A stretch of DNA of 64,000 bases from Promethearchaeota archaeon (GTDB lineage: Archaea > Asgardarchaeota > Lokiarchaeia > Sigyniarchaeales > SOKP01), in the NCBI GenBank assembly GCA_048940805.1, contig JBHLOF010000004.1, positions 33,946 through 97,945 of the forward strand. Direction: 5' to 3'. Below, one piece after another: positions 34,022 through 61,394 of the stretch. Under the pieces are notes generated by a model. The model saw only the letters and a program-made list of their open reading frames with translations. It had not been told where the DNA came from and did not search any database. Made by a program: the position numbers and the translations under genes. Positions within the stretch are counted from its first letter, which is position 1, and the number at the start of each line of letters is the position of its first letter.

Positions 34022-35473
34022 ATGAGTTCAAACTATCAAGATGTTATCATTGGTTTAGAAGTCCATATTCAACTTACTAATTTAAAAACTAAATTATTTT
34101 GTAGTTGCAATGCTAACTATCGAGGAGCTGAACCAAATACGTATAATTGTCCTGTTTGTCTTGGACTGCCAGGATCATTACCTACAATAAACAAAAAAGC
34201 TATTGAATATGCTACAAGACTTGCCATAGCACTAGATTGCAAGATAAATGATGTAATGTACTTCTTTCGTAAAAATTATTTCTATGTGGACCTACCTAAA
34301 GGTTTCCAAATCAGCCAATATAATAAAGCAGGAGGAAGAGCTTTTGGGGATGGAGGAAAAATCACAGTTAAGTTAAATGGAACTAAAAAAGATATACAAC
34401 TTAACAGAATTCATTTGGAGGAAGACCCTGCACGATTAGTACATAAAGGATCTATTTCAACATCCCCCTACACGTTGGTGGATTATAATCGATCAGGTGT
34501 TTGCCTTATTGAAATCGTAAGTGAACCTGTTATAAATTCTCCGGAAGAAGCAAGGGAATTTCTTAAGCAATTAAAATCGATAGTACAATATACTGAAATA
34601 TCAGATTTGGATTTACCTGGAGCTGCTCGAGTTGATGCAAATATATCAATTAAGGGACATAAGCGCAGTGAAGTTAAAAATATTAATAGTTTTAAAGAAG
34701 TTGAGCGAGCTTTAAAATGGGAGATTCAACGGCAAAGAAATTTGATAAAACGAGGTAAAGAATTAACTCAAGAGACTCGACATTGGGATGATAAGAGGAG
34801 AATAACGATTTCTTTAAGAACAAAAGAATTTGAAGAAGATTATCGCTACTTCCCTGAACAAGATTTAGTTCCAATAAAAATTAGTCATGAATTCATACAA
34901 GAAGTTATGGATGACTTACCGGAAATGCCGAACGAAAGATCGGTTAGGCTTAGCAGAGACTATAATCTGTCCGAATTTGATTCAGATAATCTAGTATTAG
35001 ATAAAGATATAGCAGATTTTTATGAGGATGGAGTAAATCTAGATCCATCATTTGGTCCTACGGAATTTAAACAGTTTTGCAATTGGGTTATGAATGATGT
35101 CTCCCGCAGATTAAACGAACAAAATAAGACCCTAAAAGACACAAAATTAAAACCAAAGCAATTAGTTGATTTAATTCACTTCATTAAAGATGGAAAAATA
35201 ACTACCAAAATAGCTAAATCCCTAATAGATGAAATGATGATGGGCACATCGGTTTCAAAGATTGTTGAAACAAAAGGCAAAAAAAGAATTTCGAACGAAG
35301 AAATCATAGAAAAGTATAGTGTAGAAGTAATAGAGGAGAACCCAAATATAGTAGAAGATTTCCGTGAAAATCCAAAAGCTATTGAAGCTTTGATAGGTAG
35401 GGTTATGGGGAAAACTAAAGGTCAAGCAGACCCGGAAATAACCAGAAAAATAATGAGAAAACTTCTTGAATAA
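34022..35473 (+). CDS. gatB: aspartyl/glutamyl-tRNA amidotransferase subunit B
   Basis: 'VIIGLEVHIQL', 'CPVCLGLPGSLP', 'IHLEEDPARL' and 'DYNRSGVCLIEIVSEP'. C-terminal GatB/YqeY tail. Confidence 0.9.
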   Translation: MSSNYQDVIIGLEVHIQLTNLKTKLFCSCNANYRGAEPNTYNCPVCLGLPGSLPTINKKAIEYATRLAIALDCKINDVMYFFRKNYFYVDLPKGFQISQYNKAGGRAFGDGGKITVKLNGTKKDIQLNRIHLEEDPARLVHKGSISTSPYTLVDYNRSGVCLIEIVSEPVINSPEEAREFLKQLKSIVQYTEISDLDLPGAARVDANISIKGHKRSEVKNINSFKEVERALKWEIQRQRNLIKRGKELTQETRHWDDKRRITISLRTKEFEEDYRYFPEQDLVPIKISHEFIQEVMDDLPEMPNERSVRLSRDYNLSEFDSDNLVLDKDIADFYEDGVNLDPSFGPTEFKQFCNWVMNDVSRRLNEQNKTLKDTKLKPKQLVDLIHFIKDGKITTKIAKSLIDEMMMGTSVSKIVETKGKKRISNEEIIEKYSVEVIEENPNIVEDFRENPKAIEALIGRVMGKTKGQADPEITRKIMRKLLE

Positions 35474-60573: not shown

Positions 60574-60933
60574 ATGGGAAAAAATAAGTATGGAAAAGGA
60601 TATCAAAAAGGTGGAAAATCTCCAGCTAGTGGATCTAATAAAGAGGGAGATCCCATACGTGGAGGGAAGATAAAGGCAAGCCATATCTTAGTTGAAAAAT
60701 ATAGTAAATCCCAAGAAATATATGAAGATCTCGAGGCTGGAGATAATTTTCAACAACTTGCTCAAAAATTTTCTACTTGTCCTAGTAAGAAAAGAGGGGG
60801 AAATTTAGGTGAATTCTCAAAAGGGGATATGGTTCCAGAGTTTTGGAATGCGTGCACTAAACTAAAACTGGGTGAAATTTCCCAGCCTGTAAAAACTAAA
60901 TTCGGATATCATATTATAAAACGAACTGGTTAG
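60574..60933 (+). CDS. parvulin-type peptidyl-prolyl isomerase with Gly/Lys-rich N-terminal extension (Par14-like)
   Basis: 'KASHILVEK', 'GGNLGEFSKGDMVPEF' and 'PVKTKFGYHIIKR'. The N-terminal 33 aa are 'MGKNKYGKGYQKGGKSPASGSNKEGDPIRGGKI'. Confidence 0.9.
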   Translation: MGKNKYGKGYQKGGKSPASGSNKEGDPIRGGKIKASHILVEKYSKSQEIYEDLEAGDNFQQLAQKFSTCPSKKRGGNLGEFSKGDMVPEFWNACTKLKLGEISQPVKTKFGYHIIKRTG

Positions 60934-60951
60934 AAAGAAAATAGCCCAGCA

Positions 60952-61055
60952 CGGATTCGAACCGTGGTCTAGGGGTTCAGGGCCCCCAATGCTTGACCGT
61001 TATGCTATTGAGTAAAAAACTTACTCAAATCTACACCACTGGGCTGATATTGCTA
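60952..61055 (-). tRNA. tRNA-Gln(CUG) candidate with a ~31-nt non-canonical intron in the D-loop
   Basis: Hand fold: acceptor AGCCCAG/CTGGGCT plus discriminator A. T-arm CACGG-TTCGAAT-CCGTG. Anticodon arm GGGGG-CCCTGAA-CCCCT. D-arm GTGT...GCAT is interrupted at about 61010-61040 by an insert with an 8-bp hairpin (TTGAGTAA/TTACTCAA). No CCA is encoded. Confidence 0.75.
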
Positions 61056-61066
61056 GTTTTAATATT

Positions 61067-61082
61067 AATAATCAATTTTTTC
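61067..61082 (-). promoter_or_regulatory. TATA-like A/T box upstream of the tRNA
   Basis: ATTATTAATATTAAAA (minus strand) spans about -27 to -12 relative to the tRNA 5' end. The genome is AT-rich, so specificity is low. Confidence 0.3.
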
Positions 61083-61394
61083 TAAAAAAATTTTTGCAAA
61101 TTTATAGAATCTTAACAATTTTGGGGAGAAATCCATCAAAAAATAAGAATTTCCTCATTTATTAATTATTGCCAAATAGGATAAATTTATTTATTAAGAT
61201 CGATATTAATATCGTGGATTACACGTTCTTAATTTGGAGGACTAAAAAGGTATCAGTTTCAAAAACTAATTTTATATATATATATACCCCGTGACTGAAA
61301 ACAAACAAAAAACCCCTGTAAACTGTTGTACTTTTTAACTGTTATCCTCCTGAGTGTAATCCACCCTTTTTGAATTTTTAAAATCATGTGATAC

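Follow-up and report, generated by a model that had tools for sequence, protein, structure and literature searches.

D-loop introns and C33 in the glutamine tRNA genes of a Lokiarchaeial archaeon

Gene identity and organization

A 104-nt tRNA gene was located at positions 60942–61045 on the minus strand of the window, the term used here for the whole 64,000-nt stretch of DNA that was analyzed. The evidence set out below supports the view that it is a genuine tRNA-Gln(CUG) gene and the sole CAG-reading tRNA of the genome. The gene is interrupted by a 31-nt insert in the D-loop, and its anticodon loop has C instead of U at position 33. We consider it highly probable that all of these features belong to a single tRNA-Gln(CUG), with an intron of the HBh′ type that would be spliced by an α/β endonuclease EndA and the ligase RtcB, and with a C33 that is tolerated.

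The gene extends from A1 at 61045 to the discriminator base A73 at 60942, and does not encode CCA. The minus strand from 61045 to 60942, with strokes at the exon boundaries, reads AGCCCAG UG GUGU AG / AUUUGAGUAAGUUUUUUACUCAAUAGCAUAA / CGGUCAA GCAU U GGGGG CCCUGAA up to the end of the anticodon loop, and continues with CCCCU AGAC CACGG UUCGAAU CCGUG CUGGGCU A. Exon 1 (61031–61045), which corresponds to tRNA positions 1–15, contains the acceptor 5′ strand, U8, G9, the D-stem nucleotides G10–U13 (61036–61033), A14 and G15. The intron (61000–61030) lies between positions 15 and 16 when the cutting rule for bulge-helix-bulge (BHB) motifs is applied. Exon 2 (60942–60999; positions 16–73) comprises the remainder of the D-loop (CGGUCAA), the 3′ strand of the D-stem (GCAU, 60992–60989), the anticodon arm, a 4-nt variable loop (AGAC), the T arm and the acceptor 3′ strand. 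A preliminary description of the locus had placed the gene at 60952–61055 and the intron at about 61010–61040, coordinates that are 10 nt too high.

The canonical acceptor, T and anticodon arms claimed in that description are all read on the minus strand. The acceptor stem is formed by 7 bp (AGCCCAG/CTGGGCT), the T arm by CACGG-TTCGAAT-CCGTG, and the anticodon arm by GGGGG-CCCTGAA-CCCCT with a G27·U43 pair. The anticodon loop CCCUGAA (60976–60982) consists of C32 at 60982, C33 at 60981, the anticodon CUG at 60980–60978, A37 and A38. In-silico removal of 61000–61030 yields the 73-nt product with D-loop AGCGGTCAA that had been anticipated, and ARAGORN recognizes it as tRNA-Gln(ctg) with four regular arms. 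The A1-U72 pair and A73 are both present; a first pair A1-U72 together with A73 is typical of the archaeal tRNA-Gln used by the amidotransferase GatDE. The genome, which is 97% complete, has only two tRNA-Gln genes, and the CUG gene is single.

The assignment agrees with the genes found at the same place in relatives. The comparison with orthologues that had been proposed as a check yielded three intron-less, 73-nt genes in the same neighbourhood (L054, L062 and L065), whose first 26 nt, including the D-loop AGCGGTCAA, are identical to those of the predicted spliced product; L054 is identical to this product at 69 of 73 positions. Both this identity and the in-silico splicing bear out the proposal of a tRNA-Gln(CUG) with a D-loop intron.

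Genomic context and flanking elements

The assembly comprises 4.33 Mb in 200 contigs and has a G+C content of 31.7%. The tRNA gene is convergent with a parvulin-type peptidyl-prolyl isomerase gene (60574–60933, plus strand) that serves as a synteny anchor. The closest relatives of the latter are found in metagenome-assembled genomes (MAGs) of Promethearchaeota/Promethearchaeia, that is, Lokiarchaeia of the Asgard group, and the placement of tRNA-Gln(CUG) just past the parvulin gene, on the opposite strand, recurs in many Promethearchaeota MAGs.

The discriminator base is directly followed by a T-rich tract, UUUUCUUUCU (60932–60941, minus strand), which is likely to function as an archaeal oligo-T termination signal; T-rich trailers follow most of the orthologues too. 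On the upstream side, TTTTTTTAGA at −45 to −36 and the AT-rich ATTATTAATATT at −27 to −16 (together within 61061–61090, minus strand) precede the gene. A similar arrangement, TTTTTTAGA-(spacer)-ATTATWA, is found upstream of many orthologues from the same neighbourhood (for example, L010, L012, L054, L062 and L065), with TTTTTTAGA about 40 nt and ATTATWA about 20–25 nt ahead of the tRNA-Gln(CUG) genes. These elements probably constitute the promoter (BRE/TATA), and ATTATTAATATT is the candidate TATA box. A scan for bacterial promoters and terminators was set aside, as it is not meaningful for an archaeal host.

Detection by annotation programs

ARAGORN with default settings and Rfam at gathering scores reported no RNA gene anywhere within the 64-kb window, and the unspliced 104-nt gene alone gave no ARAGORN call. 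With a relaxed threshold, the Rfam model RF00005 aligns to the unspliced gene at 60942–61014, with a wrong 5′ half and a score of 24.7 bits; the gathering threshold of this model, applied here to unspliced letters, is 29 bits. Five intron-less genes (L054, L062, L037, L009 and L043) score from 50.6 to 59.6 bits on the same model, with 52.7 bits each for L054 and L062. When introns were allowed, ARAGORN returned the exact bounds of the gene with a wrong inner model, a tRNA-Arg(acg) with a 13-nt intron in the anticodon loop. In tools of the ARAGORN and Rfam type, the modelling of introns is confined to the anticodon loop.

These outputs raise the alternative that the locus is a decaying pseudogene, or that the true tRNA is the segment 60942–61014, in which the 3′ arm of the insert's hairpin would act as an acceptor strand. 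Such a reading could draw on the end-to-end alignment of the Rfam tRNA model at 24.7 bits, and on the fact that ARAGORN with introns proposes still another structure. The alignment, however, has four acceptor and two D-stem columns that are non-standard and two extra nucleotides before the anticodon stem, and its score lies below the gathering value; for these reasons, and on the evidence of the orthologues, this segment was rejected as a tRNA. The tRNA-Arg(acg) model, in turn, was rejected because it ignores a perfect anticodon arm and the orthologues disagree with it. A pseudogene is also at odds with the integrity of all four stems, with the conserved neighbourhood, and with the absence of any other CUG glutamine tRNA from a genome that is 97% complete. 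We therefore judge this alternative extremely improbable and retain the tRNA-Gln(CUG) with a D-loop intron. Covariance models and ARAGORN had been put forward in the preliminary description as a test of its proposal; both fail on the unspliced gene or misplace the intron and the anticodon, and the orthologues identify these discrepancies as failures of the tools.

The difficulty extends to the rest of the genome. An "intron" was required in 23 of the 31 ARAGORN calls, in keeping with reports that the tRNA genes of Asgard archaea are heavily interrupted (PMC11291895; bioRxiv 10.64898/2026.10.13.758758). Two further loci, G000 C94:19155-19777 and C197:11009-11674 (L113 and L114), were called by ARAGORN with introns as tRNA-Lys(ctt) and tRNA-Asn(gtt), with "introns" of 530 and 569 nt, respectively, and neither has an Rfam match at E ≤ 0.1; these calls may be false, or may represent multiply interrupted genes. 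A gene that is missed or mis-modelled by both ARAGORN and Rfam is a concrete example of how Asgard tRNA sets come to appear incomplete.

Structure of the D-loop intron

The intron folds into an 8-bp hairpin, h′ (61008–61028, minus strand), with the sequence UUGAGUAA-GUUUU-UUACUCAA (in DNA letters, TTGAGTAA-GTTTT-TTACTCAA). Next to it, the intron carries GCAU (GCAT in DNA; 61002–61005, minus strand), a copy of the 3′ strand of the D-stem. In the minimum free energy (MFE) fold of the 104-mer (−39.3 kcal/mol, z = −3.3), this copy pairs with the exonic nucleotides G10–U13 to form a central helix H of four pairs, G·U, U-A, G-C and U·G, two of which are thus G·U wobbles. The same fold contains the acceptor stem, the h′ hairpin, and the anticodon and T arms.

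Homologous inserts of 29–33 nt are present at the identical site in 14 other tRNA-Gln genes. For the analysis of covariation, an alignment of 14 tRNA-Gln genes from this genome and its relatives was used, which covers both isoacceptors and inserts of 29–31 nt; one gene of another family with a 33-nt insert (L008) was excluded. The hairpin is 96.9% paired in this alignment, compared with 22–55% for slid controls, and two-sided changes occur in six of the seven pairs. It begins one nucleotide (in a few genes, more) after G15 and is followed by the triplet R-C-A, about three nucleotides, and then the segment with G18 and G19. Three pairs of helix H, U11-A, G12-C and U13-G/A, persist in all 14 genes, with substitutions on one side only (G/A, C/U, A/G), while the fourth, with G10, is formed in only 4 of the 14, this gene included. 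The conserved pairing of the RCA triplet and the covarying hairpin indicate that the mimic of the D-stem is real and conserved; both the 8-bp hairpin and the GCAT copy had been noted in the preliminary description.

The 5′ splice site lies in a 4 × 2 internal loop (AGAU versus UA), and the 3′ site (AAC, with the cut at AA/C) is not closed by an outer helix, as the exon helix h is absent. Because of this loop and of the unclosed AAC, the intron is assigned to the relaxed HBh′ class and not to the canonical BHB. The label of a relaxed BHB arrangement given to it earlier is consequently appropriate, as the HBh′ type, whereas the two strict 3-nt bulges that had been described are not found. A clean 3-nt bulge at the 5′ site is, however, present in the UUG paralogue of the same genome and in most UUG orthologues. 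Under the usual rule, which places the cut after the second bulge nucleotide, the junction would be G15/C16. A shift of one nucleotide in the 3′ direction results in an equally plausible D-loop, AGAGGUCAA, which is also found in intron-less orthologues, and the boundary is therefore fixed to within 1 nt. In this arrangement, a copy of the D-stem strand borne by the intron itself builds the splicing helix, which illustrates a way for an intron to be maintained at a site whose exons could not form the motif by themselves.

Orthologues and intron turnover

The second glutamine tRNA gene of the genome, tRNA-Gln(UUG) (L115; G000 C194:1891-1993, minus strand), has a 30-nt insert at the same site of the D-loop. 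It shows a cleaner 3-nt bulge, AGG, and its anticodon loop, CCUUGAA, also contains C33. ARAGORN with introns labels this gene tRNA-Pro(ggg), and no Rfam match was obtained for it at E ≤ 0.1.

Across the tRNA-Gln family, four sites carry inserts in differing combinations: the D-loop, 37/38, the variable loop and the T-loop. Some genes lack inserts altogether. Inserts of 29 nt at 37/38 are found in L010 through L015, and inserts of about 30 nt in the variable loop of L020, L025, L027 and L029. T-loop inserts of about 29 nt (GGTTCGAA ... TCCGTG) are carried by L004, L017, L023, L029, L032, L034, L039, L041 and others. The maximum is three inserts per gene, in the 162-nt L029, and the presence or absence of inserts differs among close relatives. 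Asgard tRNA genes are known to be heavily interrupted, with the D-arm introns being those that tRNAscan-SE misses (bioRxiv 10.64898/2026.10.13.758758; PMC11291895). The combinations seen here follow the pattern of repeated gain and loss of the 2026 preprint, so the D-loop intron is of an already documented kind; unannotated D-arm introns in Asgard tRNAs are already published, and this intron adds one more example.

These data also bear on whether the insert is kept in the RNA, so that the tRNA would work with an enlarged D-arm and an extra hairpin. The relaxed splicing motif could be taken to favour retention, as could the MFE folds of some orthologues, which keep the exonic D-stem and accommodate the hairpin within the D-loop. 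Against it, orthologues that have no insert keep identical exons, and the same family has inserts of a similar kind at 37/38 and in both the variable loop and the T-loop, all of which must be removed. Retention would furthermore disrupt the contacts of G18 and G19 with the T-loop, and would leave the conserved intronic RCA beside the hairpin without a role. We thus regard a retained insert as very improbable, and excision of the 31-nt insert remains the preferred reading.

Splicing and charging machinery

The genome encodes two EndA paralogues. In the α paralogue, the segment expected to be catalytic (...GLEHSLFMVHV...SVRKKF...) contains the conserved His, which the β paralogue lacks; from their sequences, the pair is consistent with an (αβ)2 enzyme. 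Asgard EndA has been described as (αβ)2 with an L1 loop that confers broad specificity, and such enzymes splice D-loop HBh′ introns (PMC5829648). The genome would accordingly possess an EndA of the predicted type that accepts relaxed motifs, and it encodes the ligase RtcB as well.

With regard to charging, a profile search of the genome identified GatE at 588.7 bits and found no GlnRS above the cut-off. The genes for GatE and Elp3 share the minus strand of one contig and lie no more than about 3 kb apart (G000 C54:4880-6772 and C54:9539-11110), possibly by coincidence. In the window itself, a GatB-like gene (34187–35470; G000 C123:68132-69415) belongs to an asnS-gatA-gatB cluster and gives a weak match to the GatE model.

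The following pathway is proposed for the maturation of the tRNA. A precursor of at least 104 nt would be transcribed, and its 31-nt D-loop insert would fold into the 8-bp hairpin h′. The intronic GCAU beside the hairpin would capture the exonic G10–U13 to form the central helix H, leaving the 5′ splice site exposed in the loop, at A14-G15/A, and the 3′ splice site two nucleotides past GCAU (AA/C), in the unclosed region of this relaxed HBh′ form. The α/β endonuclease would cut at both sites and RtcB would join the exons, upon which G10–U13 would pair again with the exonic GCAU (positions 22–25) to give a normal 73-nt cloverleaf. After the addition of CCA, the tRNA would be charged with Glu and the product converted to Gln by GatDE, a route proposed because the genome has GatE and no GlnRS above the cut-off. 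The mature tRNA would retain C32-C33 ahead of the anticodon, and C33 would be a tolerated variant, specific to glutamine tRNAs, that alternates freely with U33 in the lineage.

Distribution of C33

U33 is among the most conserved nucleotides in biology. The apparent C33 noted in the preliminary description is confirmed at 60981: the register is set by the perfect 5-bp anticodon stem and by orthologues, such as L003, that read CUCUGAA at the same place, and Rfam alignments of intron-less orthologues also position a C in the U33 column of the model. As the UUG paralogue has C33 too, a sequencing error is not the explanation. U33 is found in the other tRNAs of the genome whose anticodon arms could be read with confidence, at least 20 in number.

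Among 54 species-level genomes of the genus, C33 is present in 59 of 98 tRNA-Gln genes (29/46 CUG and 30/52 UUG). Both isoacceptors were available from 39 genomes, of which 17 are C/C, 10 are U/U and 11 are mixed between the two isoacceptors; the remaining genome combines C33 and U33 in its UUG genes. A genome-wide switch was rejected as an explanation in view of the 11 mixed genomes. The states of the two isoacceptors are weakly associated (Fisher p = 0.018 for the 38 genomes in which each isoacceptor has a single state, uncorrected for shared ancestry). The nucleotide differs even between very similar genes with homologous introns: L003 (U33) and L047 (C33) are identical at 99 of 104 positions, L015 (U33) and L013 (C33) at 96 of 102, and L025 and L020 (both U33) share 118/133 and 120/134 positions, respectively, with L027 (C33).

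C33 is not confined to the genus: other genera of the family have it, as does a sister family, in which two single-contig genomes have C33 in both isoacceptors. It is also scattered in at least five further Asgard families, while one family (f18) is uniformly U33. This survey of the phylum relied on a fixed sequence pattern, so that divergent lineages are under-sampled. C33 is a real, glutamine-specific feature that repeatedly flips between C and U among close relatives. U33 would be dispensable specifically in tRNA-Gln in these close relatives of eukaryotes, and the polymorphism, although a modest curiosity, is real.

Possible significance of C33

A full-text literature search found no description of C33 in archaeal tRNA-Gln, and C33 is not mentioned in the two papers on Asgard tRNA introns (PMC11291895; bioRxiv 10.64898/2026.10.13.758758). 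In reviews, C33 is listed only for eukaryotic initiator tRNAs (PMC5041475), and it has been recorded together with G27·U43 in tRNA-Cys(GCA) of Sulfolobales (PMC7668247). Experimental data are available for engineered variants: a yeast tRNA-Gln(CUG) with U33C (sup70-C33) is viable and has a mild pseudohyphal phenotype (PMC3664417), while human Elongator binds tRNA-Gln(UUG) with U33C and loses its activation in ELP123 assays (PMC11096365). Sulfolobus TrmJ is inactive on a C33 substrate (PMC4105751). In the one pertinent result found, the γ-toxin of K. lactis is unaffected by U33C (PMC2275089), and an escape from an anticodon nuclease was set aside as an unsupported role for C33.

C33 might be a functional switch, either as an anti-determinant against those anticodon-loop enzymes that need U33, or as a nucleotide restored to U by C-to-U editing. 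The anti-determinant version is conceivable because Elongator is not activated by U33C and TrmJ is inactive on C33, and the genomes encode Elp3. We view the switch as a rather unlikely reading. If true, it would mean that species of one genus differ in the modification of their CAA/CAG decoders. Three readings are thus conceivable: C33 may exempt tRNA-Gln from such enzymes, the Asgard enzymes may not need U33, or the C may be edited to U. A link between C33 and the absence of Elp3 was considered and rejected: this genome encodes Elp3 (677.8 bits), and 43 of the 54 genomes from the genus have a match above the family cut-off, irrespective of their nucleotide 33. In two genomes of the genus, the Elp3 match is split in two by an in-frame TAA (G062:C40:181957-183559 and G024:C25:115799-117398), and in G065 the match contains one TGA; these stops could be breaks, sequencing errors or recoding.

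A different possibility is that C33 is only genomic, with the RNA being converted to U by C-to-U editing, so that C and T would be equivalent in the gene and drift freely. We consider this improbable, since we know of no organism in which tRNA position 33 is edited. The reading would accommodate the alternation of C33 and U33 among close genes with homologous introns and the mixed states within single genomes (11/39), a toggling that resembles known editing sites, and C-to-U editing of archaeal tRNA does exist, at C8 in Methanopyrus (cited in PMC5829648). Natural tRNAs with C33, however, function unedited as far as known, as in eukaryotic initiators (PMC5041475); C33 is also recorded in the tRNA-Cys gene of Sulfolobales (PMC7668247), and the yeast tRNA-Gln(CUG) with U33C is viable (PMC3664417). 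A C33 that is retained and tolerated in the mature tRNA is preferred.

Elongator needs U33 on this very tRNA, and the natural C33/U33 pairs therefore offer a ready comparison, useful for studies of wobble-uridine modification and of the function of the U-turn. Cultured Lokiarchaeia would be a suitable place for such work if their tRNA-Gln genes carry C33.

Comparison with known systems

Non-canonical BHB introns of the HBh′ type in the D-loop are known from the Methanopyrus kandleri pre-tRNA-Glu(UUC), at 20b/21, and from the Aeropyrum pernix pre-tRNA-Thr(UGU) (PMC5829648). The intron described here resembles them as a D-loop intron that would be spliced by proteins, in its relaxed motif, which has a well-formed helix-bulge-helix at one splice site and little structure at the other, and in its predicted dependence, deduced from the genes, on an endonuclease of the (αβ)2 type. 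By contrast, it is located at position 15/16 and not at 20b/21, and its central helix is built from a copy of the D-stem 3′ strand within the intron, so that the splicing fold cannot coexist with the mature D-stem. The host also differs, being a mesophilic, AT-rich Asgard archaeon.

The published Asgard tRNA introns (PMC11291895; bioRxiv 10.64898/2026.10.13.758758) are closer in several respects. They likewise come from Asgard lineages in which most tRNA genes are interrupted, and include D-arm inserts of about 20–30 nt with BHB-like boundaries that are missed by standard annotators and whose presence or absence varies among close relatives. Those studies concentrate on Freyr-, Jordi- and Atabeyarchaeaceae, whereas the present case is one Lokiarchaeial tRNA-Gln; the terms "Lokiarch" and "Gln" are absent from the main text of the preprint (bioRxiv 10.64898/2026.10.13.758758).

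With regard to C33, eukaryotic initiator tRNA-Met and Sulfolobales tRNA-Cys similarly have C in place of the U-turn uridine in a tRNA that is necessarily functional, and the 27-43 pair is a G·U wobble here as in Sulfolobales tRNA-Cys(GCA). Unlike in those tRNAs, C33 is found here in an elongator, tRNA-Gln, in both isoacceptors, and its state is unfixed, with C33 and U33 alternating within one genus. The engineered U33C variants of tRNA-Gln (PMC11096365, PMC3664417) have the same tRNA identity and the same substituted position. They are laboratory mutants with defects, whereas the C33 described here is natural and occurs in genomes that encode Elp3.
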